32,000 nt of DNA from Paracoccus suum (lineage in GTDB: Bacteria; Pseudomonadota; Alphaproteobacteria; Rhodobacterales; Rhodobacteraceae). Positions 13,673 through 31,115 of this stretch are shown here, piece after piece. The stretch lies in contig NZ_CP030918.1 of NCBI RefSeq assembly GCF_003324675.1, forward strand, positions 1,740,001-1,772,000. Direction: 5' to 3'. Position 1 is the stretch's first letter. Each line of letters starts with the position of its first letter. The notes under the pieces are model-generated. The model had not been told where the DNA came from. It searched no databases and saw nothing but the letters and a program-made list of their open reading frames with translations. The position numbers were made by a program, and so were the translations under genes.

Positions 13673-14074
13673 TCAGAACGGGATGTCATCGTCGTCGATG
13701 AACTTGCCGTCGTCGTTCTGGGTCTGCTTTGCCCGGCTGAGGAAGTCCACCGTCTCGGCAATGATCTCGCAGCCGTAGCGCTCGACGCCCTGCTGATCGG
13801 TCCACTTGGTGTAGTGGATGCGGCCGCGAACCAGAACCTTCATGCCCTTCTCGCAATGCTGCTGGATCGTCTTGCCGAGGCCGTTGAAGGCGGTGATCCG
13901 GTGCCACTCGGTGTCCTGGACGCGATAGCCGTCCTTGTCTCGGACAACCTTGCCTTCCGAGTAGCGGGGGCGCGAGGTGGCCAGCGTGAAGTGGGTGATC
14001 GAGGTGCCGCTCTGGGTGTTGCGGGTTTCGGGGTCCTGGCCGATGTTGCCGGCAAGAATGACGATGTTCTGCAT
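13673..14074 (-). CDS. ssb: Single-stranded DNA-binding protein
   Basis: OB-fold sequence MQNIVILAGNIGQDPETR... with the canonical acidic tail DDDDIPF. ATG at 14074 preceded by GGAGA; the track start at 14128 is probably too far upstream. Confidence 0.95.
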   Translation of the reverse strand: MQNIVILAGNIGQDPETRNTQSGTSITHFTLATSRPRYSEGKVVRDKDGYRVQDTEWHRITAFNGLGKTIQQHCEKGMKVLVRGRIHYTKWTDQQGVERYGCEIIAETVDFLSRAKQTQNDDGKFIDDDDIPF

Positions 14075-14783
14075 TGTAAGTCTCCGTTGCTTCTCGAAGG
14101 GACCATCCCTCCGACGAGACCCGGCCAAGGCCGTCGGGAGACGCCAGCAAGCGCCGCCTTGGCGGCACCTCGCCCTTAAGGCCCGGAGTGGAGCGGGCAG
14201 CCGCGCTTGCGCGGCAACACGGTCCGGAGCCGCGGGGGTTGCGGTCGGAAACCGAACGGACTTAGGGGATCAGTCAGTCGGAGGGATTGGCGCCTCGGAA
14301 AGCTCACACCGGGGACGCACAGCAGAACCGTTCGTCCTTCCCGGCAACGAGGGCGCTACAGGCCCCGATATGAAACCCGCATCAGAGCGGGGTGCGCGCC
14401 GCAGGGATCGCCGTCACGAGCCTCAGCACGCCGCCAGTCGGAAGGCAAGCCGGGACCAGGACGAACGGCTATTGGGCTCCAGGATGTATGGCGTTGTTCC
14501 ACCCCGTCGGCCGAAGGTGCGATCTAGTGAATTGCAGGGCTGGAGAGCATGAAGGTTCTGGTTCGCGGACGCCACGATACGGAGGGGAACGAAGCAGAGA
14601 GTGGCGACCTTGCTAAGGCTGGAAGGGTATCAGCCGATGACCGACTTCCACAGCGGGGCCAATCGGAGCGAAGACCCTGGCAGTTACAGCGCTGGTGACG
14701 CCATTCCTCAGAGCAGGATGCCGGAAGCCCGACGGTGCAAGCCGCGCAAATTTCTTCGTGACCAGCGGCGATTCGCGATCGCA
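14075..14783. other. ~700-bp ORF-free, hairpin-dense intergenic region upstream of ssb
   Basis: No credible ORF in any frame. Hairpins at 14107..14140 (9 bp with a bulge plus inner CGGCC/GGCCG), 14153..14166 (GCCGCC-TT-GGCGGC), 14200..14215 (GCCGCGC-TT-GCGCGGC), 14230..14244 and 14375..14390. Confidence 0.6.
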
Positions 14784-15200
14784 TCAGCGAGACAGGACGC
14801 CTGTGCCGAGCGCATTGAGATTGAGCATCGCCGCTATGCCGATGAAGAGACCGCCCGCGCCGCCGAGCAGGTTCAGCATAATCGTCGAGTCGACGAAGTT
14901 CTTCGTGACGCCATGCACGAGCGCATAACCGGCGATCATCGCCGGCACCGCGAATACGGCGAGGGCGATGAGCCGCAAGGCTGGGTTCTTGGCAAAGCCT
15001 ACGACGGCGATGACCAGCGCCACGGATAGCAGCGCCGCGCCGAGGGCGGCGAGCGCCGACAGCAGGAAGCCGGCCTCCATTCCATAGACATATTGAAAGG
15101 CCGTCAGCCCGACCATGAACGGCAAGGCGTAGATGGCAAAGTTGTAGGCGATGACGCAAAGCGCGATCGTCAGGGAGATGGCAAGCAGGATGAGGGTCAC
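14784..15200 (-). CDS. Small integral membrane protein (about 4 TM helices), function unknown
   Basis: 138 aa, almost entirely hydrophobic helices. GTG start preceded by GGAGG. Confidence 0.7.
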   Translation of the reverse strand: MTLILLAISLTIALCVIAYNFAIYALPFMVGLTAFQYVYGMEAGFLLSALAALGAALLSVALVIAVVGFAKNPALRLIALAVFAVPAMIAGYALVHGVTKNFVDSTIMLNLLGGAGGLFIGIAAMLNLNALGTGVLSR

Positions 15201-15364
15201 GGCAGCCTCCGCATGAACGATTGAGGATCACCACAGGCTGCCGGATAATACGCTCCGCCTGCGACTATGCCAGTTCGCCGTTGCTGCAAATATTCTTCAA
15301 GAAAGCCATCAACCTCGTGTTCAGTCAAGTAGAGGCGGCTGGCAGGCCGCCGAGCGGCGGCGCT

Positions 15365-16333
15365 TTACGCGCCGCCGTCGAACTTCATGACTGGAATGCC
15401 GAGCTTGCGCGCCTTATCCGCAAGGTTCTCCTGAATCCCGGTGCCGGGGAAGACCAGGACGCCGACCGGCAGGACATCGAGCATGGCGTCGTTGCGCTTG
15501 AAGGGCGCGGCCTTGGCGTGCTTCGTCCAGTCGGGCTTGAAGGCGACCTGCGGCACCTTGCGACTGTCAGCCCAGCGGGAGGCGATCAGTTCAGCGCCCT
15601 TCGGCGAGCCGCCGTGCAGGAGCACCATGTCCGTGTGCTTGGCATGAACCTGATCGAGCTTCGTCCAGATCAGGTTGTGATCGTTGAAGTCCGCACCGCC
15701 CGTGACGGCGACTCTGGGACCGGCGGGCAGCAGCACCTCCGTCTCGGCCCGGCGCTTAGCGGCGAGGAAATCGCGGCTGTCGATCATTGCCGAGATGAGG
15801 TTGCGATGGTTGACCATCGAACCGCTGCGCGGCCGCCAGGGCGTGCCGGTGTGGTGCTCGAAGGCGTCCGCCGAGAGGTCGCGGAAGAGTTCCATGCTGT
15901 TGCGCCGTTCGACCAGGGTCTGTCCCTCCGCCGTGAGGCGTTCGAGTTCGACGCTCTTGACCTCGCTGCCATCCTGTTCCCGCTGAAGGCGGCGCTGCCC
16001 CTGCTCGTTGTCGTCCAGTTCGCGTTCGACCCGGTCGGCGGCGCGATGGAAGAGATTGACCGTCGACCAGAGGAGATCGTCGAGATCGGGTTCGAGGCGG
16101 GTGTCGCCGAGCGTCGAGACGAGGGCGTCGAAGATGTCTGCGACGGCTGCGGCGACGGTGTTGCCCTCCGGCAGCGGACGCGGATCGGGTTCGTCCTGGA
16201 AGGGGCGGTAGCCATAGAGCTGGAGTTCGGTGAGGACGTGATCGGTGGGGGATGAGGTGTGGACCGGCTCGAAGCCTGTGTCATCGTCTTCGTTCATCAT
16301 CGGGAGCATCCTTCGTCTGGAGACCGCGCCCAT
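15365..16333 (-). CDS. DUF2493 (SLOG/Rossmann-like) domain protein
   Basis: The C-terminal VAVTGGADFNDHNLIWTKLDQVHAKHTDMVLLHGGSPKGAELIASRWA...VLVFPGTGI matches the DUF2493 pattern common on conjugative elements. The start is uncertain (16333, 16309 or 16300). Confidence 0.7.
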   Translation of the reverse strand: MGAVSRRRMLPMMNEDDDTGFEPVHTSSPTDHVLTELQLYGYRPFQDEPDPRPLPEGNTVAAAVADIFDALVSTLGDTRLEPDLDDLLWSTVNLFHRAADRVERELDDNEQGQRRLQREQDGSEVKSVELERLTAEGQTLVERRNSMELFRDLSADAFEHHTGTPWRPRSGSMVNHRNLISAMIDSRDFLAAKRRAETEVLLPAGPRVAVTGGADFNDHNLIWTKLDQVHAKHTDMVLLHGGSPKGAELIASRWADSRKVPQVAFKPDWTKHAKAAPFKRNDAMLDVLPVGVLVFPGTGIQENLADKARKLGIPVMKFDGGA

Positions 16334-16631
16334 CGCGGCCTTCGCAGGCGTCGAAGCTCACGGGCGGGACGGCCTGGCAGCCCTCGTGCTCCCGCGAGGG
16401 CCTTGATGGCCAAGCCGGCTATTTTGCTTCGCGATGCAAAGGCGGGGCTTGCCCCGCTGGCGGAAAATAGCCGAAAGCGCAGCGCCATTGCCCGGCTGGC
16501 CCGTTTGTGAGCCGATCGCCCTCTCAGAAGGCCGTGGGCGCCCTCTCCGACGCGGGAAGGGTGTTCCCGATGATGAGTGGAGACGGCAGGCGGAGCCATT
16601 CAGAGCTTTGCCCCATCCCCCGCCGATCCTC

Positions 16632-17669
16632 TCACCCCTCCATGAACCGGCTGACGTCCACGGGATGAAGCTGATCCTTCAGGGCCGCCCGGAGGGCATC
16701 GACGCCGCGCCAGCGCAGATCCTCGTTGAAGTCCTCGCGCGCTGGCGACATCGCAACCGCTTCGATCCCGACGCTCGCAGCTCGGGCGATCAGGCTGTCT
16801 CTCGCGCCGTCCCCAGCCGGATCACGATCGCGAAGGACATAGAGCCTGCGCAGCGTCGCCGGGAACAGGATGGCGGCGAGGTGTGCGGCCGAGAGCGCCG
16901 CCAGCATCGGCATGTGCGGCAGAACCTGACGGGGCGACAGCACGGTCTCGATGCCCTCTCCGGCGACCAGCACATCGCCGGCAACGCCAAAATGGACGCC
17001 GTGTCCGAGAAGGTCGCCCATCGCCCGCCTCGGCGTTTCGACAGGCGCCTTGCCCGAGCCGTCCGGGGCGAGCCAGGTGCGGTGCGCGCCGGTCTGTCGC
17101 CCGTCAAGGTCGGTGACGGACGCGATCATCGCCGGCCAGATCTCCGTGGGCGAATGCTCGTCGGGCCGGTAATAGCACCGGGGATGGTAGCGCAGTGCGG
17201 TGCCGCCGATGAGCGACGTGATTGCCCGCCCGCTGAGGTAGATTTCCGCAAGCGTGCCGCCAATCGGCTGCGACACGGCGAACAGCCGCCGCGACGCTTC
17301 GGGCGAACCGACGGCAATGCTCGATGTCCTGCCGGTCGGTGTCCCGGTCTGTTCCGGCAAGGGATGCGGGAGACTGAGGAAACGGCGCGCTTCCTCGGCC
17401 ACATCCGTGAAATCGACGAGGCCAAGCGCCTCGCGGATGATGTCGAGCAGATCGCCATGGTCGCCGGTGGCGGCGTCGGTCCATTTCCCGGCCGGACCTT
17501 TGGGGGTGTCCCTGAGTCGGACATAGAGGGAGCGGCCGGGGCTGTTCTGCGCGTCCCCGACCTGCCAGTAATTGCCTGCCCTCCGACCGGAGGACAGGTA
17601 TTCGCGGCAGACCGCCTCGGCCTCGCGGCCGAGGCGATGCGCCAGTTCCGAGGCGTGACGCGAAGCCAT
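16632..17669 (-). CDS. Toprim-domain protein (DUF7146/primase-like)
   Basis: Toprim Glu in VAGEGIETVLS and DxD in VLRDRDPAGDGA. The N-terminal region resembles the zinc-binding/DUF7146 module. The ATG directly abuts the stop of the upstream gene (TAAATG). Confidence 0.8.
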   Translation of the reverse strand: MASRHASELAHRLGREAEAVCREYLSSGRRAGNYWQVGDAQNSPGRSLYVRLRDTPKGPAGKWTDAATGDHGDLLDIIREALGLVDFTDVAEEARRFLSLPHPLPEQTGTPTGRTSSIAVGSPEASRRLFAVSQPIGGTLAEIYLSGRAITSLIGGTALRYHPRCYYRPDEHSPTEIWPAMIASVTDLDGRQTGAHRTWLAPDGSGKAPVETPRRAMGDLLGHGVHFGVAGDVLVAGEGIETVLSPRQVLPHMPMLAALSAAHLAAILFPATLRRLYVLRDRDPAGDGARDSLIARAASVGIEAVAMSPAREDFNEDLRWRGVDALRAALKDQLHPVDVSRFMEG

Positions 17670-20600
17670 TTATGCGGCCTCCCGTTCGCCGATGCGTTCG
17701 ACCGGCCAGCGGTCGAAGAGCTTGCCGATGATTACCGGCCCCTGAGCGTCCACCGGCACGAAGAAGCGCAGCTTCCACGAGATGATCTCGTGATAGAGGC
17801 CATAGGCCGTGAGGCGCTGGCGCATCGTGTCGGTGAAGCCGGTGAGTTCGATGCGCAGCGCGCCCATGACGCGGACCCGGCGAAGCTGAAGGCCCTCGGC
17901 GAGATCGAGGATCGTCTTTCCGTCCATAAGGGCGGTGAAGGCATCCTCCGGCGTGATCGACGCGACGCCGATCGCGGTCGCGTGGGCAACCCAGGCAGGC
18001 GAAACGCGGCGGCCGATGATCCGCTCGCCAGCATCGGTCTGGAGCCGATAGACGCGGGTGGATTCGTTCGGCAACCGCTTCCAGATAGGCAACAGGAGAC
18101 CTGTCACCATATGCAGGGTGCTGTCGGAAAACTCCGGCACCTCGGCAATCTCGGCATTCCAGGCAGAGGCGAAGGCGTCCCGGTCGGCTTCGACCCAATG
18201 GGTCTCGGGCATGGTCTTGACCGGGATGTTGTGCGCTTCCGTCGGCCGGATCAGTCGGACACGGCGCTCGATCTCGCCATCGTCCAGCATGACGCTGGTG
18301 GTCGGAACCTGCACGGCGGCGCGGCCCGACCGCTCGTTTACCAACAGTACCGCGCGCGGATCGTCCAGGTTGCCTATGGCCTCCGACAGCGTGACCGGAT
18401 GGTTGCGCTTGCGCTCGATGATGGTCAGCAGGCGGGTCTGGGCGCCGGTTCGCGGATGGGTATAGATTGTTTGACGGTCGGTGACGGTAAAGCTCTCCGC
18501 TCGCAGCGTCTCCAGCCCGGCGTCATAGGTGCCCGACGCGATGGCGCCCTCGATGCGCGCCGTCAGAAGTTGCTCGAAGGCGGTGAACAGCACGCCCTGA
18601 AGCTCAATCGTCAAGGCCAGCAGCCGGTTCAGGAAGGTCGTGATGGCCGGGAGGTCATCCTTGATGCCGTTGGAGTCCATCAGCTTCAAGCCGGTGGCGC
18701 TCTCAAAGCGGTCGAGCGTGCATCCCTCGACCTTGCCGCGGACCAGCAGCAGGTAGAGCTGGCGCAGCGCGTCGCGGGCGTAATGCGATTCCAGATTGTC
18801 TTCGGGCCGAAACAGGCCCTGACCGGCGGTCTGGCGCTGGCCGCGCGTGATCGCGCCCAGGGTGTCGAGACGGCGGGCGATGGTCGAAAGGAAGCGCTTT
18901 TCGGCTTTGACGTTCGTGGTGATCGGCCGGAACAGGGGCGCTTGCTTCTGGTTGGTCCGGTGCGTTCGGCCAAGCCCCTGGATCGCAGTATCGGCCTTCC
19001 ATCCGGCTTCGAGCAGGTAATGGACGCGCAGCCGCGTGTTCCGTGCCGACAGTTCGGCATGATAGCTGCGGCCTGTGCCGCCGGCGTCGGAGAACACCAG
19101 AACCTGCTTGCCGTCGTCCATGAACGCTTGGGTTTCGGCCAGGTTGGCCGAAGCTGCGCGATTCTCGACGACAAGGCGATCAACAGTGACGCCCTTGCCA
19201 GCCTTGCGGATGATGCGCCGCAACCGGCCCGTCACTTCAGCCACGGTATCGGTGCCGAACTGCTGGATGAGCTGGTCCAGCGCACCGGGGACCGGCGGCA
19301 GGCTGGCGAGCTTTGCGATCAGCTCGTCGCGGCGGGCGACCGCTTCGCGGCTTTCGACGGGCCGGCCGTCGCGCATGACGGGCCGCGATGACGTATTGCC
19401 CTCCGAGTCGGTGAACGGCTCGTAGAGCTGCACCGGGAAGGAATGGGCAAGGTAGTCCAGGACATATTCCCTCGGGGTGATGTCCACGCGGACGTCGTTC
19501 CATTCCTCGGTCGGCAGCTCGGCCAGCCGGCGTTCCATAAGCGCCTCGCCGGTCGAGACGATCTGGATGACGGCCGAATGGCCCGCCTCCAGATCGGCTG
19601 CGATGGAGCGGAGCAGCGTCGGGGTTTTCATGCTGGTCAGGAGATGGCCGAAAAACCGCTGCTTGGCCGACTCGAAGGCCGAGCGCGCGGCGGATTTCGC
19701 CTGCCGATTCAGGGTGCCGGTGCTGCCGGTGATATTGGCCGCTTCCATCGCCGCATCCAGATTGTTGTGAATGATGGCGAAGGCCCCGGCATAGGCATCG
19801 TAGATGCGGGTCTGTTCCGGGGTCAGCTCATGCTCGACCAGCTCGTATTCGACGCCGGCGAAGGACAGCGACCGGGCGGTGTAGAGGCCGAGGGCGCGCA
19901 TGTCGCGGGCCAGAACCTCCATCGCCGCGACGCCGCCGCCCTCGATGGCCTCGACGAATTCGGTCCGCGTGGCGAACGGGAAATCCTCGCCGCCCCAAAG
20001 GCCAAGGCGCTGGGCATAGGCGAGGTTGTGGACCGTAGTGGCGCCGGTCGCGGAGACATAGACGATGCGGGCGTCCGGCAGGGCGTGCTGGAGGCGAAGC
20101 CCGGCTCGGCCCTGCTGGCTGGCGGCGACATCGCCCCGTTCTCCCTTGCCGCCTGCGGCGTTCTGCATCGAATGCGCCTCGTCGAAGATGATCACTCCAT
20201 CGAAATCCTCGCCCAACCATTCGACGATCTGCTTGACGCGGGAAACCCTATCGCCGCGGTCGTCTGAGCGTAGCGTGGCATAGGTCGTGAAAAGGATGCC
20301 TTCGGGCAGCGTCACGGGCTTGCCCTGCGGGAAGCGCGACAGCGGCGTAACCAGGAGGCGCTCCATGCCGAGCGCCGACCAGTCGCGTTGTGCGTCTTCC
20401 AGCAATTTGTCGGATTTGGAGATCCAGACGGCCTTGCGGCGGCCCTGCATCCAGTTGTCGAGGATGATGGCGGCGGATTCCCGACCCTTGCCGACGCCGG
20501 TGCCGTCACCGACGAAGAAGCCTTGCCGGAAGCGGACGGCGTTCTTGGCGTCCTCGGCCGCCGCGCTGACCACATCGCAGGTCTCGTCGACGGTCCAGGC

Positions 20601-22016
20601 CCCGGCGAGATGGTCGGCATGGGCCTGGCCGGCATAGATGACGGTCTCAAGCTGCGCGTCGGACAGAAGACCAAGAATGGTCTTCGGCAGATGCGGTCGG
20701 TAGCCGGGCTTCGGCGGGGCGACGCTCGCCATCGCCGCCGACTGGACGAGCTGGGTTGGATGAGGCTGGGCGCCGGGAATACGGATGACCTGAAGCGCGT
20801 ATTCCTCATAGATGGCGTCGGTGATGTGGCCGCCCTCGGCCGGCTGCCAATCGACAATCTCATAGTCGAGCGGTGCGGCTTCCGGCTCGGTCTGCGGCGC
20901 CGGGCGGGCGGCTTTCGCCGTGGCGGCGATATAGCCGCGCACGGTGCGAGGCGTAGGCGCTGCGGCAACCGGGACAACGACTGAAGGATCGACAGGCTGA
21001 CGCGCGGGCAGGCTCGCGCCGATCCAGACCATCAGGGTGGCGGCATCCGGTGCGGCGCCGGGAGAGGTCGGGAAGACTGCCGGATCGTCGGCGGGCAGCT
21101 TGTCGATGACGGTGATCCGGGTATCGATCGTCGTGCCATGCTTGGCATAGACAGAACCATCGACTGCGGCGGAGAAGACCACGCGACCGCGCTCCTGCAG
21201 CCGGACGAAGGCCGGGGTCCAGGCAGGATTATCGGGGGCGAAGCTCGCGCCGGTGATCGTCACCAGCCGCCCGCCGGGCGCAAGGCGCGCAAGCGCCGAA
21301 GCGACGTGGCGGAAGGCGGCATCGGCGACGCGGCCCTGGACATTCGCCAGCGCCGAGAACGGCGGGTTCATCAGCACCACGGACGGGACCAGGGCAGGAT
21401 CGAGGTGATCGTCGATCTGCGCCGCGTCGAAACGCGTGACGGACAAGGCGGGAAAGAGGGAGGAAAGAAGACCGGCGCGCATCTCGGCCAGCTCGTTGAG
21501 GACGAGCGCGCCGCCGGCGATCTCGGCCAGGATGGCGAGCAGTCCGGTCCCGGCCGAGGGTTCCAGAACCCGGTCGGCGGGCGTGATGGCGGCGGCAGTC
21601 GCGGCCGCCAGCCCCAGCGGGATCGGGGTGGAGAATTGCTGGAAGGTCTGCGCCTCCTCCGAGCGGCGTGTATGGGTCGGCAGCAGCCCGGCGATCCGCG
21701 TCAGCAGCGGCAGGCTATCGGCTGGCGAACCGGCTTTACGGAAAAGCGCCTTTCCGTACTTGCGCAGGAACAGGACGATCGCGGCCTCGCTGGCGTCATA
21801 GGCGGTTTTCCAGTCCCAGGCGCCAGCGGTATCGGACGCGCCGAAGGCGGTTTCCATCGCGCTGCGAAGCGTGGCGGCGTCGATGCGCTGGCCGCGCTCG
21901 AGGTGAGGCAGAAGAAGACCTGCCGCCGAAAAGACGGACGTGGCGGCATGGCTGTCGGGGACAAGCGGAAGCGGCCCGGCGACCGATGCCGCCGCGGATG
22001 CGGAAATCATGTTCAT
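17670..22016 (-). CDS. Large fusion of an N6-adenine-type SAM methyltransferase and a strawberry-notch/SNF2-like helicase
   Basis: Motif I LEPSAGTGLLA, motif IV NPPF, P-loop GDGTGVGKGRE and DEAH box IIFDEAHSMQN. Probable start MNMISASAA at 22016 (GAGG upstream); the track ORF extends to 22133. Confidence 0.9.
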   Translation of the reverse strand: MNMISASAAASVAGPLPLVPDSHAATSVFSAAGLLLPHLERGQRIDAATLRSAMETAFGASDTAGAWDWKTAYDASEAAIVLFLRKYGKALFRKAGSPADSLPLLTRIAGLLPTHTRRSEEAQTFQQFSTPIPLGLAAATAAAITPADRVLEPSAGTGLLAILAEIAGGALVLNELAEMRAGLLSSLFPALSVTRFDAAQIDDHLDPALVPSVVLMNPPFSALANVQGRVADAAFRHVASALARLAPGGRLVTITGASFAPDNPAWTPAFVRLQERGRVVFSAAVDGSVYAKHGTTIDTRITVIDKLPADDPAVFPTSPGAAPDAATLMVWIGASLPARQPVDPSVVVPVAAAPTPRTVRGYIAATAKAARPAPQTEPEAAPLDYEIVDWQPAEGGHITDAIYEEYALQVIRIPGAQPHPTQLVQSAAMASVAPPKPGYRPHLPKTILGLLSDAQLETVIYAGQAHADHLAGAWTVDETCDVVSAAAEDAKNAVRFRQGFFVGDGTGVGKGRESAAIILDNWMQGRRKAVWISKSDKLLEDAQRDWSALGMERLLVTPLSRFPQGKPVTLPEGILFTTYATLRSDDRGDRVSRVKQIVEWLGEDFDGVIIFDEAHSMQNAAGGKGERGDVAASQQGRAGLRLQHALPDARIVYVSATGATTVHNLAYAQRLGLWGGEDFPFATRTEFVEAIEGGGVAAMEVLARDMRALGLYTARSLSFAGVEYELVEHELTPEQTRIYDAYAGAFAIIHNNLDAAMEAANITGSTGTLNRQAKSAARSAFESAKQRFFGHLLTSMKTPTLLRSIAADLEAGHSAVIQIVSTGEALMERRLAELPTEEWNDVRVDITPREYVLDYLAHSFPVQLYEPFTDSEGNTSSRPVMRDGRPVESREAVARRDELIAKLASLPPVPGALDQLIQQFGTDTVAEVTGRLRRIIRKAGKGVTVDRLVVENRAASANLAETQAFMDDGKQVLVFSDAGGTGRSYHAELSARNTRLRVHYLLEAGWKADTAIQGLGRTHRTNQKQAPLFRPITTNVKAEKRFLSTIARRLDTLGAITRGQRQTAGQGLFRPEDNLESHYARDALRQLYLLLVRGKVEGCTLDRFESATGLKLMDSNGIKDDLPAITTFLNRLLALTIELQGVLFTAFEQLLTARIEGAIASGTYDAGLETLRAESFTVTDRQTIYTHPRTGAQTRLLTIIERKRNHPVTLSEAIGNLDDPRAVLLVNERSGRAAVQVPTTSVMLDDGEIERRVRLIRPTEAHNIPVKTMPETHWVEADRDAFASAWNAEIAEVPEFSDSTLHMVTGLLLPIWKRLPNESTRVYRLQTDAGERIIGRRVSPAWVAHATAIGVASITPEDAFTALMDGKTILDLAEGLQLRRVRVMGALRIELTGFTDTMRQRLTAYGLYHEIISWKLRFFVPVDAQGPVIIGKLFDRWPVERIGEREAA

Positions 22017-22110
22017 GGGGAGACCTCGGGAGAGCAGGACAGGATCGAGCCGCGCAGCGCTCTCTCTCGACCGCACAGGCTCAAACCCGTCCCGGCCTCC
22101 TCTGACTCTC
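22017..22110 (-). promoter_or_regulatory. Conserved structured leader element, copy a (upstream of the methylase-helicase gene)
   Basis: mRNA sense: GAGAGTCAGAGGAGGCCGGGACGGGTTTGAGCCTGTGCGGTCGAGAGAGAGCGCTGCGCGGCTCGATCCTGTCCTGCTCTCCCGAGGTCTCCCC-ATG. It shares the GAGAGT(G/C)AGAG box, the GACGGG/C(C/U)UGUC helix and the GAGAGAG hairpin with copies b-d. Confidence 0.65.
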
Positions 22111-22133
22111 GAAAGGTAGGCCGTGGCCGGCAT

Positions 22134-22818: not shown

Positions 22819-23227
22819 CTGAGCCGCCTCCATCGAGAACCTGGGCGAGCCAGCCATCGGTGTAGGTCCATGCCACCGTCTCGCCGGTGGCGAGGTCGAG
22901 GACATGAGCGCCGCCGCCGAAACCGTCGAGGCGTGGCCGCGAGCAGGTGTTGGCGTATTGGAAGCCCCAGAGACCACTGAGGCGGAACTCGGTCGCGCAG
23001 ATCTTCACGAACCGCAGCAGACGCTCGGGATCGCCTGTCTGGTCATCGCGCATCCAGAGCCGGGCACCCCCGTGCTCCGGCTGGATCGATAGGAGAAACC
23101 CCTCGGACGGCGGTTCGTCGGAAGCGCCTTCCTCCGAAAGCTTGTTGTAGAGGTCAAGCGCTCGGGCGGCATTATCGGGCGTGCCGACGTCAAGCAGGCA
23201 CGAGAAATGGGTAAAGTAGTTGGCCAT
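22811..23227 (-). CDS. Hypothetical protein (138 aa)
   Basis: MANYFTHFSCLLDVGTPDNAARALDLYNKLSEEG..., ATG at 23227 preceded by AGGAG. The N-terminal part of track ORF 22811..23527 is a spurious extension. Confidence 0.65.
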   Translation of the reverse strand: MANYFTHFSCLLDVGTPDNAARALDLYNKLSEEGASDEPPSEGFLLSIQPEHGGARLWMRDDQTGDPERLLRFVKICATEFRLSGLWGFQYANTCSRPRLDGFGGGAHVLDLATGETVAWTYTDGWLAQVLDGGGSDE

Positions 23228-23301: not shown

Positions 23302-23505
23302 TCAGAGGCGGAACTGCGCCACAAGCCGCTGGGCATCGGCATGGTGGCGCAGCATGTCGCGATAGAACCGCTTTCGCGCGCCCCGCAGTGCGGGATCGCG
23401 CCGGGCCGATAAAGCCAGCTTGCAGCGCGCGGCGCGGATTACGGCGCGCTGGCTGTCCCAGACCAGGATGTCGAGGCGCAGGTAGGTCGCATACATCGCC
23501 ACCAC
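23302..23505 (-). CDS. Small hypothetical protein (64-67 aa)
   Basis: Helical-looking ORF YATYLRLDILVWDSQRAVIRAARCKLALS... The GTG at 23505 abuts the upstream stop; there is an alternative ATG at 23496. Confidence 0.45.
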   Translation of the reverse strand: MVAMYATYLRLDILVWDSQRAVIRAARCKLALSARRDPALRGARKRFYRDMLRHHADAQRLVAQFRL

Positions 23506-23906
23506 CTAGACGTTGATGCGTTCGCACAGAGCGTCGATACGAGTCGGATCGAGGCCGGTATGCGCGCCGTCATTGGTGACGATCTTTTCGAGCGCAGGTT
23601 CGAGATCGCCGCGCCCAAGGGCGAGCTGGAGGAGGCGCAGCCCCGCCAGCAAGGCGTCGCGCTCCTGGGCGGTGATGCCGATGGTAGGAACGCCTCGACG
23701 GCTTCACCGTCGTCGAGGAGGCGAACGCCGCTGTGCTCGTCGATCTCGTAATCGTCGAACTCCTGCACATAGCCGGTGGGGAGCCATGCGCCTTCGTAAT
23801 GAACGCTCCGGACGAGACTTCGCGCCTCTTCGGGCGTGTCGGCCTCTAGGACGGTTTCGTAATAGACGAAGGCGTCGTGGCCTTTGCTGACGACGAATTT
23901 CTGCAT
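23506..23906 (-). pseudogene. Small conserved-looking gene split by a -1 frame change (about 132 aa if repaired)
   Basis: The N-terminal frame MQKFVVSKGHDAFVYYETVLEADTPEEARSLVRSVHYEGAWLPTGYVQEFDDYEIDEHSGVRLLDDGEAVEAF turns into P/S/R-rich junk. My own translation of the -1 frame from 23703 gives ...PTIGITAQERDALLAGLRLLQLALGRGDLEPALEKIVTNDGAHTGLDPTRIDALCERINV ending at TAG 23508..23506. Confidence 0.6.
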
Positions 23907-23978: not shown

Positions 23979-24536
23979 TCAGGCGGCCTGAGGCAGCCGG
24001 AGCAGATCGGCGGCGGCCTCGCGCCAGAAGGGGTCGACCAGGCGTGCTTCGAGCAGGCCGACCTGGTGGCGATGATTGCGGGCCGCACCCTGCTCGCCCC
24101 GGCCGGAGGCGGCGAAAGCCAGTCCGCGCAGGCGGCTGGCTTCGATCACGATCCGACGGGCCTCGCCGTCGCTGGCGACAGGCTGTTGCCAGAGAATGAT
24201 CCCGGCGCGGATTTCGCCGGCCAGAACCAGATTCTGATCGTTGTCCTGGATGACGGCGAAGCGTGGATGAAAGCGCAGCGTCTTATCTTGTCCCACGCCA
24301 ATGCCGCCGCGCCTGACCGAAACGGCCGCGAAGCTGGTGGCGTTCTCCAGCGACGGGCGGTCGCCGAGAAAGACGCTGCGGTCGAAGCTGTCGGCCTCGT
24401 CGGTGCCGGCATAGCGGGCCGTGCCGATGCAAGTGATGCGCAGCGGCAGCTTCGCGGCAAGGCGCAGCCGGGGCAGGATCTGATGCGCGAGGATGTCGCC
24501 GATCGGGGCGAAGGTGGTTTGAGGTGCATGGGCCAT
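23979..24536 (-). CDS. Hypothetical protein (185 aa)
   Basis: MAHAPQTTFAPIGDILAHQILPRLRLAAKLPLRITCIGTARYAGTDEADSF... The ATG at 24536 sits directly after leader copy b (GGAG 11 nt upstream). Confidence 0.6.
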   Translation of the reverse strand: MAHAPQTTFAPIGDILAHQILPRLRLAAKLPLRITCIGTARYAGTDEADSFDRSVFLGDRPSLENATSFAAVSVRRGGIGVGQDKTLRFHPRFAVIQDNDQNLVLAGEIRAGIILWQQPVASDGEARRIVIEASRLRGLAFAASGRGEQGAARNHRHQVGLLEARLVDPFWREAAADLLRLPQAA

Positions 24537-24622
24537 CGCAGGATGCTCCAGGACGGGCGCCGGGAGCTCTCTCTCCGGCAACCAACCCGTCACGGAAAAC
24601 CCGTCCGCACTCTCACTCTCCC
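24537..24622 (-). promoter_or_regulatory. Conserved structured leader element, copy b
   Basis: mRNA sense: GGGAGAGTGAGAGTGCGGACGGGTTTTCCGTGACGGGTTGGTTGCCGGAGAGAGAGCTCCCGGCGCCCGTCCTGGAGCATCCTGCG-ATG. Confidence 0.7.
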
Positions 24623-24731: not shown

Positions 24732-24896
24732 TCAGCCGAAGGGATCAAGTTCCAGCCTGACCATTTCTTCGTCGCCATCGAATTCGTTGGCGGGCATGGC
24801 GCCGTGAGTGCCGTCCCCGGCCTGGTAGACGATAATCGAAACCATCAGCGTGGTGGCTAGGCTTGCGGCGAAAGCGGTGGCATCTGCATAGGACAT
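24732..24896 (-). CDS. Small hypothetical protein (54 aa)
   Basis: MSYADATAFAASLATTLMVSIIVYQAGDGTHGAMPANEFDGDEEMVRLELDPFG, with AGGAG 8 nt upstream of the ATG at 24896. Confidence 0.5.
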   Translation of the reverse strand: MSYADATAFAASLATTLMVSIIVYQAGDGTHGAMPANEFDGDEEMVRLELDPFG

Positions 24897-24977
24897 GGTT
24901 CCGGCTCCTGTCTTGGGAGGCGGGGGACCATCCCCCGCGCGACAGGCGCCCGAAGTGTCTGACCGGCTCTGCAATCA

Positions 24978-25014
24978 CCCTCGGGCGTTCGGACGTTTTC
25001 CGAATCCCCGAGGG
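24978..25014. other. Strong 37-nt imperfect hairpin (8 bp + 6 bp)
   Basis: CCCTCGGG-CG-TTCGGA-CGTTT-TCCGAA-TC-CCCGAGGG. No flanking T/U run on either strand. Confidence 0.6.
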
Positions 25015-25350
25015 CGGCACGCGCGCGTAAGCCGACCCCTTGCGGGTTGATTGATAAGGAGACGGATCGGACCAAGGTTGCGAATGGAAGCGGGATGGTG
25101 TCCGCCATCAGACAAAAGCCGGATCATCAATCTAAAAGGGTGCCATCGCCCCCCGCACTTCCCGCCTGTTGGTGAAGCGAAGATGTTTGAGGGTGTGAGC
25201 TGTCCGGGCACGAGCTTGGCCCGCTATGGCGTTTCATGGCGCCGAGGTCGACCGGTGGAATTGATGAAAATACTATGAGCGGCCGGTTGCGTCAGGATGG
25301 AATTCATACGCGCTCGAAGCTTTGATTGGGCCTCTTGTTGAGGTGAAGCC

Positions 25351-25500
25351 ATGAGCAGAAATGCACTTTTGCGGGCAACGATGAAGACGAACGAGAGCAG
25401 CCGATCATCCTGGCGTATGGCGATGACGGTTATCGGAGCGGCGTTTGGGGTCTGGACGAAGTCCGACACACCGAATCAACGAGGCGATCGACACTCATGA
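25351..25500 (+). CDS. Possible small membrane peptide (49 aa)
   Basis: My own translation: MSRNALLRATMKTNESSRSSWRMAMTVIGAAFGVWTKSDTPNQRGDRHS. GAGGTG lies 5 nt upstream, and the stop overlaps the next start (ATGA). Confidence 0.35.
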   Translation: MSRNALLRATMKTNESSRSSWRMAMTVIGAAFGVWTKSDTPNQRGDRHS

Positions 25501-25709
25501 TGAATGGGTATGTGACGGGTAAGTCCGCCAATGTCGGTGGAGAGCGACGGCGTTATACGGTCATTGAGAAGCCCGATGGGTGGTGCGTTAGCCTGAACGG
25601 GATGACAACGGGGGCGTTTCCGAACCGGGCCGCGGCTGCAACTGTGGCGAGGAGCCTCCAGCACCAAGCCGATAACCTCAATCACGTCTACGAGCGGAAA
25701 TCCCACTGA
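25497..25709 (+). CDS. Small DUF2188-like protein (70 aa)
   Basis: RRYTVIEKPDGWCVSLNGMTTGAFPNRAAAATVARSLQHQ fits the DUF2188 pattern (Y-x-V...GW-x-V...f.t..eAi..Ar). Confidence 0.5.
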   Translation: MMNGYVTGKSANVGGERRRYTVIEKPDGWCVSLNGMTTGAFPNRAAAATVARSLQHQADNLNHVYERKSH

Positions 25710-25923: not shown

Positions 25924-28017
25924 CTAGTCCTCGTCCTCACCGGCAAGGAAGGCTGGGAGCGCCGTCTCGGCCTCGCCTTCCGAGGCATCGGACGTGGTCG
26001 GCTCGTCATAGTCGATCAGGCGCAGCGGCTCCGGTAGCCAGCCACTGTCGGCCAGCAGGCGTTCGGCCTCCTTGGCCATGTCGCCCTTCTTCAGGTGGTC
26101 GACGAGCTGGGCCGCGCGTTCGCCCGCGCCTTCGCGGACGGCCGCAAGAATGCGGGGCTTGGTGACGCGGCCGAGATAGTTCTCGACCGTGGGTCGGAAG
26201 CCGACGTCCACCATGTCGAGGCCGGTGGCGCGGGCCAGTCGATCGGCCTCTGCCATACGCCGGTCGAGGCCCGACTGCGACACGCCGCTGCCGCTGTAGG
26301 GATTGGGCCGTTCATAGAGGGCGTTGATCCCATAGCTGACGCAATGCGCTAGCAGCGCCATGCGGCTGGCGTCGTCGAGCACGGCGAGCCAGTCCCACAG
26401 CGCATCCTCATCGGCTGGTAGGTCAGCCTTCCAGTCCTCATGCCGCTGGGTGACGGACTTGGCATAGGCCGTCTCGGCGAGATCCTTGCCTTGTTCGCGG
26501 AAGAAGACGTGATTGACGGACGCCTGCAGGCTCGCGCCGGAGGTGCCCGTCCGCTGGAAGGTGTCGCGCACGAGCTTGTGCAGCAAGGCGGTAAACGCGA
26601 CCTGGGGATTGGCGCCCACGGCATCGCGGAGCGCCAGGGTGCGGTGCGCCGTCAGTTCGGTAACGAGCCGTTCGGGCAGCGGCTTGATGACGTCTTCCTC
26701 GTCGTCATCCTCCGGTTCGGCCGACTGGCCGTCGATGGTGATGACGGCGCGCTGGACGGTGCCTGCAGCCGCGACTTCGGTACCGGTGGTTTCGGCCTCG
26801 CCGTCGGGGTCGTCGACGCCGACCAGCGTCTCGTCCTCCGGGCGCACATAGCCGCGATCGACGACGGGCTCGCCATCGCGGTCGACGCTGATGAAGACGC
26901 CGCCACGCGCGATGTCGGCCGGATCGTAGATGACCGGGCGCTTTTCAAAGGCTTCGAGCGCCGTCTCGATCTCGCCGAGACGCTGGTCGATCTCGTCCGG
27001 CAGCTCGTCGGCTTCCGAGTATTCAGCTTCGATCCGTTCGTATTCCTCACGCAGGGCTTCGCGGGCCGCGCGCTCGTCATCGTTCAAATCGACCAGGGTG
27101 AAGTCGAGCGCCCGAAGCCCCTGGTCGTAGCCATAGGGCAGATCGGTATCGACGGCGATCCACTTCCAGCCCTCGGCGGCAATTTCATCGGCGAGGGTCT
27201 TGAGCTTCTCGCCGACCAGACGGTCGAGAAGCGCGGGGTCCTGAAGCCAGCCGCCTCCATCGGTCTGGAAGAGATCGCGCAGCACGCTGCCGCCCGCCTG
27301 CTCATAGGTTTCGATGCCGATGAACAGGGCGCGCTTGTCGGTGGCCGGCACCGTGGTTTCAGTGAGCAACTGGCGGATATACCAGGGCTGGCGATTGTGG
27401 GAGGTCTGGACCGTCTCCCAGACCTGCTCCTGGCGGGCATGGTCGGGATTGACGGTGAAGGCCATCAGCTCTTCGAGCTTCATGCCGTCCTCGGCATAGA
27501 TGTCGAGGAGCGTGGGCGAGACAGAGGCCAGACGCAGGCGCTGCTTCACCACCTGCGCGGTCGTGAAGAAGGCCGCAGCGATCTCCTCCTCGCTCATGCC
27601 CTTGCGGCGCATGTCGTAGAAGGCCCGGAACTGATCGAGAGGATGCAGCGGCACGCGCTGGGTGTTTTCGGCGAGGCTGTCGTCCTCGGCGAGAATCGAC
27701 GTGGAGGGATCACGCACGACGCAGGGCACAGGCGCGGTCCTGGCGAGACGCTTCTGCTTCACGAGGATGGCGAGCGCCTGATAGCGGCGACCGCCGGCGG
27801 GAACTTCATACATGTCGGTCTCATCGCCCCTGGCGTCGAGGACCGGGCGGACATTGAGGCTCTGGAGGAGCGTGCCTCGGCGGGCGATGTCCTCGGCCAG
27901 TTCCTCGACCGAGACGCCGGCCTTGACGCGTCGGACATTCGATTGGCTGAGCACGAGCTTGTTGAAGGGGATGTCGCGGGAAGGCGACAGGATGATTTTC
28001 TGGGCGGCAGTAGCCAT
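25924..28017 (-). CDS. Large ParB/Srx N-terminal-domain protein (697 aa; KorB/ParB-like, not adjacent to parA)
   Basis: LSQSNVRRV...YEVPAGGRRYQALAIL carries the ParB GxxRxxA/arginine box. Long acidic central and C-terminal regions. Confidence 0.85.
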   Translation of the reverse strand: MATAAQKIILSPSRDIPFNKLVLSQSNVRRVKAGVSVEELAEDIARRGTLLQSLNVRPVLDARGDETDMYEVPAGGRRYQALAILVKQKRLARTAPVPCVVRDPSTSILAEDDSLAENTQRVPLHPLDQFRAFYDMRRKGMSEEEIAAAFFTTAQVVKQRLRLASVSPTLLDIYAEDGMKLEELMAFTVNPDHARQEQVWETVQTSHNRQPWYIRQLLTETTVPATDKRALFIGIETYEQAGGSVLRDLFQTDGGGWLQDPALLDRLVGEKLKTLADEIAAEGWKWIAVDTDLPYGYDQGLRALDFTLVDLNDDERAAREALREEYERIEAEYSEADELPDEIDQRLGEIETALEAFEKRPVIYDPADIARGGVFISVDRDGEPVVDRGYVRPEDETLVGVDDPDGEAETTGTEVAAAGTVQRAVITIDGQSAEPEDDDEEDVIKPLPERLVTELTAHRTLALRDAVGANPQVAFTALLHKLVRDTFQRTGTSGASLQASVNHVFFREQGKDLAETAYAKSVTQRHEDWKADLPADEDALWDWLAVLDDASRMALLAHCVSYGINALYERPNPYSGSGVSQSGLDRRMAEADRLARATGLDMVDVGFRPTVENYLGRVTKPRILAAVREGAGERAAQLVDHLKKGDMAKEAERLLADSGWLPEPLRLIDYDEPTTSDASEGEAETALPAFLAGEDED

Positions 28018-28100
28018 CGTGGTAGTCTCCGCGACGGGCGCCGAGAGCCTCTCTCTCGACCCGAACCCGTCACGAAAATCCCCACCTCCCTCTCACTCTG
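28018..28100 (-). promoter_or_regulatory. Conserved structured leader element, copy c
   Basis: mRNA sense: CAGAGTGAGAGGGAGGTGGGGATTTTCGTGACGGGTTCGGGTCGAGAGAGAGGCTCTCGGCGCCCGTCGCGGAGACTACCACG-ATG. Confidence 0.7.
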
Positions 28101-28804: not shown

Positions 28805-29746
28805 TCAGACCCCGCACATGCCCTCGCACTCGTTCGGCCAGAGATCGAGCTGGCCGCGGTCGGCGGCCGTCGATAGGTGGGCTTGGTCGAGCGGCACGGC
28901 GGAGCGGTGCAGATAGACTTCGGCGCGGATGCCGCGGAAACCGGTGCGGATGGCGGCGTCGACCGACACGGCGTCCGCCCAGGCTTCATGGTCGCGCATC
29001 TGTCGCCAGTGATCGTCGGAATGAAACGGACACCCGATGCAGGCGCTTTTGGGCGGCAGCGGATAATCATGCCGTTCCAGCCAGCGCAGACAATCCCGGC
29101 GGGTCAGGCCCCGCTCGATCAGGGGCCAGCGGTTGACCTGCCAGCTCTCGAAAGAGGGTTTCATGCGAAGCGCCTCGTCGAGCGAAATCCCGATCCATTG
29201 CTCGGCGACCGGCGACGTGGGCGAGCGCCGCCCTGCGATGCCGAGCAGCTCGCGCACTTTCCGCTTGATCGGCACGATCTTGTAGTCTCCGGTGCATTGG
29301 CAGCGGATCATGCCGATGCTGGCCCGCTCGGTCGCCACGATGCGGGAGCCGACGACGACGAGATCGCCGTTTTCATCCTCGTCATAGACGGGAAGCTCGC
29401 TCCCGGCAGGCGTCACGGTGCGGGTGAAGGCTGGAATGGAGGCCCAACGCTCGCCCTGTGCGCCGGCGATGAGGTCGGCGCGCAGATCCCCGCCTGAGAC
29501 GATATGGACGGGAAACGGCAAGACATTGGGCGACCGCAGCCAGGCGAGATGGTCATAGACGGCCTGCGGCTCCCACCCGGTGTCGGCGAAGATGGCGCAA
29601 TCGGGCATGGGGCCGACTTCGCCATGCGCCGCCATCAGCGCCAGCGTGGTGGACTGGACGCCGGCGCCCAGGCTGAGGACGCGCAGGCGGATGTCGGCCG
29701 ACTGCGCGGGGTCGGGGACGAAACCCGGAAAGGCGAGCGCGTTCAT
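28805..29746 (-). CDS. PAPS-reductase/PP-loop ATP-pyrophosphatase-like protein with C-terminal Cys cluster
   Basis: PP-loop-like LSLGAGVQST, plus CIGCPFH and a C-terminal ECEGMCGV. The ATG at 29746 overlaps the ardC TGA by 1 nt (alternative GTG at 29749). Confidence 0.75.
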   Translation of the reverse strand: MNALAFPGFVPDPAQSADIRLRVLSLGAGVQSTTLALMAAHGEVGPMPDCAIFADTGWEPQAVYDHLAWLRSPNVLPFPVHIVSGGDLRADLIAGAQGERWASIPAFTRTVTPAGSELPVYDEDENGDLVVVGSRIVATERASIGMIRCQCTGDYKIVPIKRKVRELLGIAGRRSPTSPVAEQWIGISLDEALRMKPSFESWQVNRWPLIERGLTRRDCLRWLERHDYPLPPKSACIGCPFHSDDHWRQMRDHEAWADAVSVDAAIRTGFRGIRAEVYLHRSAVPLDQAHLSTAADRGQLDLWPNECEGMCGV

Positions 29747-30699
29747 CACGCCGCCTCCTGCTCGTCGTCGTTCTGGTCGATGCTGCCGGCATGCGGCAGG
29801 AAGCTGAGAAGCCAGTCGGCCGCCTTGCTGGCCTGCGAGGCGGCTCGGACGATGGCGCGGTTGTCCTCGCGCAGCACCTCCAGCCAGGAGCCGATATAGT
29901 CGGCATGGCGCACGGTCGGGACGATCCCGAGCGCGGCGCAGCTATAGGCCGAGATCAATTCGGCGGTGATTTCCTCGACCGAATAGAGCTTCGAGCCGAA
30001 GGAGCCTGAGAGGTTCCGGTTCAGCCGGTGCTCTGCGCCGCTCGCGTGACCGAGTTCATGCAAGGCCGTCCGGTGCCAGTTGATCGGCTCGAAATAGGCG
30101 GCTGGCGGAGGGACTTGCACGTAGTCGAGCGACGGAACGTAGAACGCCCGGTTGCCGCCAATGCGGAAATCGATGCCGGTCGCTTTGATGAGCGCCTCCA
30201 CCTGGGGCTCGATCATGCCGGGCGGCGGCGGCGGCGCGGTCGCCTCGATGTCTTCGGGCAGGTCGTCGCATTGCGCCGTGTTGAACACCGTGAAGCGCTT
30301 CAGGAACGGGATCGCCTGCGCTTCCTCGCCAGCCTCGAAGGCGCGGCGCTTCTCGTCCTCCGGCGTGAAGCGGTCGGCATAGACGACGGTGGTGCCGCGC
30401 TCGCCCTTGCGGACATGGCCGCCGAGCGACAGTGCCTGGCGGAAGGTGAGCCAGCCCTGGCCGGGAAAGCCGTGCTCGATGACGGCTCCCCAGAGGATCA
30501 GGACATTGATGCCGCTGTAGCTTCGCGAAGTTGCGGCGTTGCGCGGCAGGCCAAGCGGGGCCTTGGCCGCCGACGTGCCCCAAGGCTGGACCCACGGCAC
30601 GCGGCCAGCTTCCAGCTCCCCGATGATCTTGTCGGTGATTTCGTCATAGAGGTTCGCCCGGTCGGCTCCGGCACGAACGCGGCGATCGTTTCTGGACAT
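29746..30699 (-). CDS. ardC: ArdC-type antirestriction protein (ssDNA-binding N-domain + zincin metallopeptidase)
   Basis: N-terminal LYDEITDKIIGELEAGRVPWVQPW and C-terminal HEXXH (ALHELGHASG). Confidence 0.9.
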   Translation of the reverse strand: MSRNDRRVRAGADRANLYDEITDKIIGELEAGRVPWVQPWGTSAAKAPLGLPRNAATSRSYSGINVLILWGAVIEHGFPGQGWLTFRQALSLGGHVRKGERGTTVVYADRFTPEDEKRRAFEAGEEAQAIPFLKRFTVFNTAQCDDLPEDIEATAPPPPPGMIEPQVEALIKATGIDFRIGGNRAFYVPSLDYVQVPPPAAYFEPINWHRTALHELGHASGAEHRLNRNLSGSFGSKLYSVEEITAELISAYSCAALGIVPTVRHADYIGSWLEVLREDNRAIVRAASQASKAADWLLSFLPHAGSIDQNDDEQEAA

Positions 30700-30782
30700 C
30701 GCGGCTCTCCGCGACGGGCGCCGGAAGCCTCTCCTCCAGCTCTCTACCCGTCACGGCAAAACCGGTCCGCACTCTCACTCTA
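30700..30782 (-). promoter_or_regulatory. Conserved structured leader element, copy d
   Basis: mRNA sense: TAGAGTGAGAGTGCGGACCGGTTTTGCCGTGACGGGTAGAGAGCTGGAGGAGAGGCTTCCGGCGCCCGTCGCGGAGAGCCGCG-ATG. Confidence 0.7.
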
Positions 30783-30857
30783 ATAGTTCAGGCACTGCAT
30801 CGTGTGGTCGGGCAGCGCCATGATCGGCGCGGTGCGATCAAGTGAAACGGCGCGTGA

Positions 30858-31115
30858 TCAAGCAGTGCGCTCGGACCGCCAGTGGCCATCTTGGCCCTTG
30901 GCGAGCCGCCAGTTCTGCACGGTTACGAGCGTGCCGCGGGCGGTGCGATAGTCGGGAACGGTGAGACGGATGGAATCGCCTTCGGCGCGCCATTCCGCGA
31001 TGACGGTGACGCCGTCGCCGAACTCGACCAGGCAGTCGGGCGCGGCCTTCCCATCATCGTCGACGGTGACGCGGCCTTTCCGAAAGGCATGGCTATGAGG
31101 AAACAGGAAACGCAT
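30858..31115 (-). CDS. Small hypothetical protein (85 aa)
   Basis: Strong SD AAGGAGAAAG upstream of the ATG at 31115. Beta-rich-looking sequence; no family recognised. Confidence 0.6.
   Translation of the reverse strand: MRFLFPHSHAFRKGRVTVDDDGKAAPDCLVEFGDGVTVIAEWRAEGDSIRLTVPDYRTARGTLVTVQNWRLAKGQDGHWRSERTA

Follow-up and report, generated by a model that had tools for sequence, protein, structure and literature searches.

What is the role of the long run of co-oriented genes that stretches from ssb to ardC in a conjugative element of Paracoccus suum, and does it enter a recipient early in transfer? The run, referred to here as the island, occupies positions 13673-31115 of a 32,000-nucleotide stretch of the P. 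suum chromosome (contig NZ_CP030918.1; the whole stretch is the window), and a first-pass annotation had likened it to the leading region of a conjugative plasmid. Our analysis indicates that it is probably a conserved establishment and anti-restriction module, lying on the leading side of oriT, where transfer originates, and under shared post-transcriptional control. The layout is of a known kind, and its newest part is the set of messenger RNA leader families together with a Watson-Crick-covarying hairpin; searches of Rfam 15 gave no match at the leaders or at the hairpin at 16339-16530 (E <= 1 to 10).

Judged by its gene content, the window is a chromosomal integrative and conjugative element (ICE) of the ICEMlSymR7A/Tn4371-like family (MOBP relaxase, MPF_T). 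It carries an rdfS-like HTH gene, traF, a transglycosylase gene, oriT, an rlxS-like relaxase gene of the MOBP type and traG in the order of that family, together with DUF736 and DUF2285 (FseA-like) genes, and this is the backbone set out in PMC8627217 and PMC11963761. The gene order also matches that of pYP1, a plasmid relative from K. vulgare that is typed as MOBP/MPF_T. Read from right to left, the direction of transcription, the gene series begins with an XRE regulator, a protein of 85 amino acids (aa), ArdC, a PAPS-reductase/SspD-like protein of 314 aa and a ParB-like one of 697 aa, continues with proteins of 54, 185, 133 (frameshifted), 64, 138 and 214 aa, and then has a 1487-aa methyltransferase-Strawberry-notch helicase, a DUF7146+Toprim protein, a DUF2493/SLOG protein, a membrane-like protein of 138 aa and, last in the island, SSB. 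Next comes the backbone, with HTH_3, two DUF2285 proteins, HTH_17 (RdfS-like), RepA, ParA, an RHH protein, DUF2840, TraF, DUF736, an SLT transglycosylase, the DUF3363 relaxase, TraG and a CopG-like protein. For this family, PMC8627217, PMC11963761 and PMC10359603 treat excision, quorum sensing and the trb genes; PMC8627217 makes no mention of ardC, ssb, toprim or 'leading', nor PMC10359603 of ardC, and PMC11963761 was checked for oriT terms only. A literature search found nothing describing the module or its leaders, and a query with the leader sequence returned nothing relevant.

Whether the island lies on the leading side depends on where, and on which strand, the element is nicked. The oriT passages of PMC11963761 place oriT of ICEMlSymR7A between msi107 and rlxS, and we compared the transglycosylase-relaxase gap of the window with that of 80 metagenomic relaxase relatives, among which it takes 38 distinct sequences of 125-135 nt. 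The sequence CTTTTATCT[CT]GCC is present in 36 of the 38 gaps, in the plus-strand orientation of the window, where it lies at 7050-7062. The published MOBP nick consensus is 5'-(C/T)ATCCTG(C/T)-3' (YATCCTG|Y), with an inverted repeat upstream (PMC3772185); the canonical TATCCTGCC is found in a single relative, and the motif YATCYYGY is on the window's plus strand in 29 gaps and on the opposite strand in one. The putative oriT core (7012..7062, plus strand) thus comprises an inverted repeat (7012-7019/7024-7031), the pairing of which is kept despite sequence changes in relatives, followed by the nick-region motif CTTTTATCTCGCC at 7050-7062; within it the conserved motif reads TATCTCG|CC (7054-7062), the plus-strand sequence of the predicted nick region contains TATCTCGCC, and nic is predicted at 7060/7061. 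The first-pass annotation had put a candidate oriT at about 7 kb, which agrees with this conserved MOBP-like motif and with the ICEMlSymR7A analogy, but the GTCCTGC at 7063-7069, near which it had placed the nick, is not conserved in relatives.

The orientation of the motif identifies the plus strand as the likely transferred strand (T-strand), as had been proposed; computationally, the 29-to-1 strand bias speaks for this, as does an inverted repeat on the 5' side of the motif. By analogy with characterised relaxases, the relaxase probably nicks the plus strand in TATCTCG|CC at about 7060|7061, so that the strand would leave 5' to 3' toward higher coordinates. The island, being 3' of the predicted nic, would therefore lie on the leading side, with the incoming strand as the template for its minus-strand genes. 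Eleven backbone ORFs (open reading frames; transglycosylase, traF, parA, repA, rdfS-like, fseA-like and others) would enter the recipient first, the island would follow as about ORFs 12-27, with nearly all of its genes templated by the incoming strand, and the relaxase gene would enter last.

Gene calls were made from an ORF listing together with third-position GC. All ORFs between 2688 and 31649 whose third-position GC is coding-like are on the minus strand, save for a plus-strand cassette at 25351..25709, and within the island there are 15 minus-strand ORFs and this one cassette, an arrangement in which the predicted T-strand serves as template. The claim that essentially all genes from ssb to ardC point one way is thus upheld for the credible genes, although the first-pass annotation had overlooked the cassette (25351..25500 and 25497..25709) and its gene list also lacked the 314-aa gene at 28805..29749. 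Pfam, NCBIfam, PHROGs and PADLOC agree with the identities it had given to ssb, ardC, the methyltransferase-helicase, the ParB-like gene and the toprim gene. In plasmid leading regions, anti-defence, methyltransferase and SSB genes are enriched among the first 30 ORFs and are encoded on the T-strand (Samuel et al. 2024, PMC11541004). The island is alike in lying on the side predicted to enter first, in the orientation of its genes relative to the T-strand, and in holding ssb, ardC, an orphan methyltransferase and many small uncharacterised genes within the first 30 ORFs, so that the establishment and anti-restriction content ascribed to it is borne out by comparison with the reported gene set. 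It differs from the plasmid islands in belonging to a chromosomal alphaproteobacterial ICE, in having eleven backbone ORFs between nic and ssb, in an orientation that is uniform over the whole backbone and not over the leading side alone, and in carrying sense-strand RNA leaders and a Watson-Crick-covarying hairpin instead of -35/-10-like hexamers, none of which were seen by eye.

The recognisable genes, all on the minus strand, include several whose products could act on incoming DNA. ArdC (29746..30699) has both an ssDNA-binding ArdcN domain (E = 5e-43, 146.5 bits) and a zincin-like metallopeptidase domain (MPTase-PolyVal, E = 3e-47, 160.1 bits), each scoring above its Pfam cut-off. The 697-aa ParB-like protein (25924..28017) matches ParB_N (E = 4e-4) and PRTRC_parB (E = 1.4e-12), and the 1487-aa protein (17670..22133) joins an N6-methyltransferase-like region to a Strawberry-notch helicase (AAA_34, E = 1e-121; Helicase_C_4, E = 1e-97); its N-terminal residues 162-332 match the PADLOC mad2 model (E = 2.7e-12), which we take to represent a methyltransferase component, and there is an NPPF motif in the translation. 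The DUF7146 + Toprim_3 protein (16632..17669) is primase-like, the protein encoded at 15365..16333 belongs to the DUF2493 / YAcAr SLOG family (E = 3e-32), and ssb (13673..14074) matches PF00436 (E = 6e-29). The ssb ORF can be extended to a TTG at 14128, and the ATG at 14074, which fits a Pfam SSB domain running from residue 3, is the more likely start. The accessory 314-aa protein (28805..29749) resembles PAPS reductases and SspD (phrog_424, E = 1.6e-41; SspD, E = 1.8e-5), and a single-sequence search of the PDB with it returned nothing below E = 0.1. ArdC of IncW/pSa plasmids and the 'polyvalent protein' domains that phages and conjugative elements carry are reportedly the subject of work by Belogurov in 2000, Gonzalez-Montes in 2020 and Iyer in 2017. 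The island resembles these systems in its ArdcN and zincin-like MPTase-PolyVal domains, its Strawberry-notch helicase-methyltransferase fusion and its ParB and Toprim domains; unlike in the polyvalent proteins, these domains form separate genes in one co-oriented array and not one giant protein.

The arrangement of these genes is conserved well beyond P. suum. In 80 genomic loci that encode a ParB-like protein at 66-98% identity, we find an array of ArdC, a slot, ParB, a second slot, helicase, Toprim and SLOG on one strand. Among the 51 loci of full length, used for gene counts, ParB is present in 51, the Strawberry-notch (Sno) helicase in 47, Toprim in 45, ArdC in 41, SLOG in 39 and the 138-aa gene at 22811..23227 in 37, and the accessory genes are much rarer, the 214-aa gene being present in 19, the 185-aa gene in 11, the 314-aa gene in six, the 64-aa gene in five and the 85-aa gene in two. 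In relatives the slots hold DUF2958, DUF6117, DUF4326, RadC and HEPN-like proteins, as assigned by Pfam, and a protein of about 400 aa that we take from its sequence, without a family scan, to be DUF932-like. RadC, DUF4326, DUF2958 and DUF932 families are neighbours of anti-restriction genes on mobile elements. The island is thus a fixed scaffold with variable slots for small genes, which fits a role in an arms race without proving one.

Shared control is suggested by an 82-nt element (the class-1 leader) that is present in three copies on the minus strand, each directly before the ATG of a gene: the 185-aa gene (24537..24619, 83.1 bits), the parB-like gene (28018..28099, 95.6 bits) and ardC (30700..30781, 94.3 bits). 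A covariance-model search of the window found no class-1 copies beyond these three. With nhmmer we identify 174 matches in 81 sources, and these precede ArdC (63), ParB (about 82), the 185-aa gene (17), the DUF932-like gene (eight) and the 314-aa gene (one), and no other type of gene. An alignment of 134 sequences folds as a two-stem hairpin, the 3' strand of which ends in the GG of a Shine-Dalgarno sequence, GGAG, at a distance of 7-10 nt from the ATG, covering part of the ribosome-binding site. In this alignment 98.2% of cells are paired and 12 pairs show double changes; this pairing is not attained in any of 500 shuffles, and in slid controls it is 34-51%. The wobble test gives 19.1% G-U and 0.9% A-C, and the sense strand is the more stable in 133 of the 134 copies, from which we conclude that the class-1 leader is, on this comparative evidence, a structure of the mRNA and not a T-strand promoter; Frpo-like promoter function, which we had considered as a candidate for these leaders, is ruled out by the same tests.

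A second conserved structure is of a different character. Between the Toprim and SLOG genes lies a long imperfect hairpin of about 190 nt (16339..16530) that is conserved in about 50 loci; in the alignment 21 of its 57 pairs show double changes, 96.5% of cells are paired and none of 500 shuffles reaches the observed value. The covariation is almost purely Watson-Crick (G-U 0.6%, A-C 1.4%), and the alignment contains indels not divisible by three, which argue against coding. Folded as single-stranded DNA, the plus strand reaches -65.3 kcal/mol (z = -3.47) and the minus strand -58.6 (z = -1.32), and the strand opposite the genes is the more stable in all 26 of 26 homologues. We regard the element as a candidate single-strand DNA signal of the Frpo/ssi kind. 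Like the Frpo/ssi signals of F and ColIb-P9, for which PMC11541004 cites Masai and Arai 1997, it is a hairpin in a (probable) leading region; it is about 190 nt long and lies upstream of the stretch whose last gene is ssb, it folds better on the predicted T-strand, and its Watson-Crick pairing survives the double substitutions. It differs in having no visible -35/-10 hexamers and in a strand preference within about 1 standard deviation (SD) of background, and the likeness is one of form.

Taken together, these observations suggest how the module could work. Among the island's products, SSB, the SLOG protein (DprA superfamily), the primase-like Toprim protein, the methyltransferase-helicase, the ParB-like protein, the PAPS-reductase-like modification enzyme and ArdC would act on single-stranded or unmodified incoming DNA, and the variable slots that separate ardC from parB and parB from the helicase gene house small accessory genes, in the window those for the 214-, 64-, 133- (frameshifted), 185-, 314- and 85-aa proteins. 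The shared 82-nt leader would link expression of ardC, the parB-like gene and the 185-aa gene, and of DUF932 in relatives, and the separate long hairpin, upstream of the SLOG-membrane-ssb stretch, may act on the single strand. A more specific and decidedly tentative proposal is that these form a previously undescribed control layer of two parts. In this proposal the leader, a new class that numbers two or three copies in each element and over 170 across 80 elements, would gate translation of an 'establishment regulon' made up of ardC, the gene for the ParB-like protein, DUF932 and accessory genes, giving for example a burst of expression on entry, and the 190-nt hairpin on the transferred strand would be a promoter, or a priming site for the adjacent primase-like protein. 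To our knowledge a single-strand signal of this kind has not been described outside enterobacterial plasmids.

If the island does follow the logic of plasmid leading regions, the rule would extend to chromosomal ICEs of a different bacterial class. Alphaproteobacteria very commonly carry this backbone: homologues of its proteins number from hundreds to thousands, there are identical copies in Paracoccus, Brevundimonas, Devosia, Enterovirga and Hephaestia, and related elements bear symbiosis or catabolic traits. The analysis yields seven intact small proteins, two of them with confident structural models and no fold match in the PDB, as well as three cis-elements, of which the shared leader offers the most tractable handle on the timing of the establishment genes.

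Several observations weigh against an establishment role on the leading side, and some of them speak for the main alternative, which we consider unlikely, namely that the block is a vegetative maintenance module whose SSB, primase-like Toprim, helicase and ParB-like proteins serve, with the RepA and ParA encoded nearby, to copy and partition the ICE after excision, or a plasmid, in its host. Uniform orientation would then reflect operon structure and not order of entry, and the small genes would be accessory cargo. Co-orientation spans the whole backbone on both sides of oriT, including the relaxase gene, the coupling-protein gene (T4CP) and donor-function genes (traF, transglycosylase, rdfS-like); because of this it does not single out the block, and co-orientation alone is weak evidence; an opposite-strand cassette also lies inside the island. 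RepA (PF10134) and ParA are in the same co-oriented backbone, the same module is found on large replicating plasmids, SSB, Toprim, helicase and ParB could equally maintain an excised element, and the 138-aa (22811..23227) and 54-aa genes are conserved with the backbone and are not variable. The island also begins as far as 6.6 kb and eleven ORFs from nic, scans with Pfam, NCBIfam and PADLOC place none of the small genes in a known anti-defence or defence family or in any other, and one of those listed is frameshifted. Because the leaders that these genes share are structures of the sense-strand RNA, it may be that expression needs promoters in double-stranded DNA; inspection by eye showed no -35/-10-like hexamers in the hairpin-forming elements, for which no systematic Frpo search was made. 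Folding is biased to the plus strand over the entire island (-2.45 ± 3.53 kcal/mol), so the preference of the long hairpin (about -6.5) is only about 1 SD beyond it and its strand asymmetry is only suggestive of T-strand function. On the other side, ArdC belongs to an anti-restriction family; the ParB-like gene lies 15 kb from parA and has its leader in common with ardC, not with parA or repA; the variable slots hold RadC, DUF4326, DUF2958 and the DUF932-like protein; and the position of the block relative to the nick motif is that of the leading side.

That last point would turn against an establishment module if the polarity were opposite or oriT lay elsewhere, for the block would then be transferred last; we think this quite improbable. 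The position of nic in this element is a prediction, made together with the polarity by analogy with RP4 TraI and VirD2, and the window motif TATCTCGC departs from the YATCCTGY consensus at two positions; the leader hairpins, moreover, fold on the minus (sense) strand and could be single-strand signals were that strand the one transferred. Against this, the nick-like motif has its strong bias to the plus strand, with the inverted repeat 5' of it as in RP4, oriT adjoins rlxS in the paradigm element, and in five gene families the leaders keep a fixed spacing to the Shine-Dalgarno sequence and the ATG, as would suit a function in mRNA. More improbable still, in our view, is that the small ORFs are mere filler, decaying or without function, and play no part in establishment. 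One of them is indeed frameshifted, several are present in only a few percent of relatives and none has a domain match, but homologues number in the hundreds to thousands at full length, two AlphaFold models are confident (pLDDT 86 and 88), third-position GC is coding-like, and both the 185-aa gene and the 54-aa gene have a conserved structured leader in front of them. The explanation that we favor remains an establishment and anti-restriction module, with early expression in the recipient, and an anti-defence role for the small genes that the first-pass annotation had called prime candidates for it, as possible extensions.

The first-pass annotation had listed eight small genes as unassignable, and this description stands: Pfam, NCBIfam and PADLOC have no match for them, PDB searches with three of the families and Foldseek with two models found none, and PHROGs gives only family 5162 (unknown function). 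Seven of the eight are real, conserved ORFs that are called in many genomes, but the listed gene at 23506..23906 (401 nt) is not an intact ORF. It corresponds to a 133-aa accessory gene at 23439..23906 (minus strand, as are all of these) that is intact in the relatives L002-L004; at 98.6% identity to these the window has a 1-nt gap, the frame is lost after about residue 74, and the gene is either a pseudogene or affected by a sequencing error in the P. suum genome. The 214-aa accessory protein (22174..22818; 4605 homologues) is the member of PHROG 5162. Its AlphaFold model (pLDDT 86, pTM 0.80) has no match in the PDB by Foldseek (best E = 0.2, TM < 0.3), and its matches in BFVD are all phage proteins without characterisation (best TM 0.59). 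The NCBI name, 'antitoxin of toxin-antitoxin stability system', is an assignment that we do not adopt; the protein has no match in Pfam, NCBIfam, PADLOC or the PDB, and its pairing with the 138-aa gene is not obligate, since by tblastn the latter is in 37 of the 51 full loci and the 214-aa gene in 19. The 138-aa backbone protein itself (22811..23227), whose gene has an 8-nt overlap with the next one, is found in 47 loci and has 1806 homologues, with no Pfam domain and no PDB match. The 185-aa accessory protein (23979..24536), the one preceded by a class-1 leader, has 479 homologues, all alphaproteobacterial and hypothetical; its AlphaFold model has a pLDDT of 88 and no Foldseek match in the PDB (TM < 0.3), and profile searches of the PDB with the 138-aa (22811..23227), 214-aa and 185-aa families returned nothing below E = 0.1.

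The remaining small proteins are a 138-aa hydrophobic, multi-pass membrane-like protein (14784..15200) with relatives of 27-31% identity in 20-24 loci; a basic helical accessory protein (23302..23505) of 64/67 aa, mostly 64 aa in relatives; a semi-core 54-aa protein with one hydrophobic helix (24732..24896), found in 40 loci; and the rare 85-aa accessory protein (30858..31115), encoded between a three-hairpin element and the ardC leader. The plus-strand cassette comprises a 49-aa ORF with a hydrophobic stretch (25351..25500) and a 70-aa DUF2188-like ORF (25497..25709) that share a stop/start overlap, ATGA; the latter is named 'DUF2188 domain-containing protein' in relatives, and neither has a Pfam match in the window. 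The cassette sits in a gap of lower GC of about 950 bp.

Two further structured elements accompany the genes of the minus strand. The class-2 leader before the 54-aa gene (24897..25075, about 180 nt) is conserved in 43 loci and has 43 predicted pairs, ten of them with double changes, and a Shine-Dalgarno sequence, AGGAG, within a stem; its wobble frequencies are 9.1% G-U and 1.6% A-C. In at least 41 relatives the GC-rich three-hairpin element (31178..31256, minus strand, 78 nt) is immediately upstream of the leader of ardC or of DUF932, and in the window the 85-aa gene parts it from the ardC leader. The hairpins are visible on manual realignment, and the middle one covaries, for example as GGCCGAG/CTCGGCC, GCCGGCG/CGCCGGC and GTCGGCA/TGCCGAC. 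Two tandem GC-rich terminator hairpins directly follow the parB-like gene (25787-25859, minus strand), and these explain weak Rfam matches to mmgR/suhB (25774-25850) and BjrC80. An Rfam match resembling sRNA-Xcc1 (28246-28359, plus strand) was also rejected, having 33.9 bits where the gathering score is 53; the region is conserved only in near-identical relatives and in part in L018 and L019, and it lies within a strongly structured gap of 700 nt (ssDNA z = -5.26). Single-strand folding of the gap upstream of ssb and of that between the 54-aa gene and parB is no better than that of shuffles (z = -0.17 and +0.59).

GC content in the window is high (60-70%), and its small proteins exactly match P. 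suum locus tags DRW48_08560 to 08625; exact-sequence look-ups also find identical or more than 90% identical small proteins in Brevundimonas, Devosia, Enterovirga, Methylopila, Ochrobactrum and Hephaestia. Between the window and the relatives L002-L004 the identity of the ParB-like protein is 98%, several small island proteins are identical, and near-identical island proteins cross the orders Rhodobacterales, Caulobacterales, Hyphomicrobiales and Sphingomonadales. Such identity across alphaproteobacterial orders points to a very recent spread of the ICE over a broad host range. The integrase, att sites and trb mating-pair genes of such an ICE are outside the window; in some relatives a tyrosine-recombinase-like ORF lies upstream of ardC.

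A few observations concern the flanks and the backbone. At 1401-2645 on the plus strand the halves of a glycosyltransferase are split over adjacent ORFs (GT28_N, 1401..1697; EryCIII-like_C/UDPGT, 1710..2645), which suggests a disrupted cargo gene adjoining the ICE backbone. Within the repA ORF there are three 18-nt direct repeats (CGGTTCCCGATAGCACGA; 10541-10605, spacing 23-24 nt) that look like iterons or a partition site. Finally, pYP1 (L001) carries genes for an ATP-dependent endonuclease and a UvrD helicase (24560-28388) about 3.5 kb from ardC on the island-distal side; the pair looks Gabija-like, and a defence system would thus lie close to the anti-restriction module in that plasmid.

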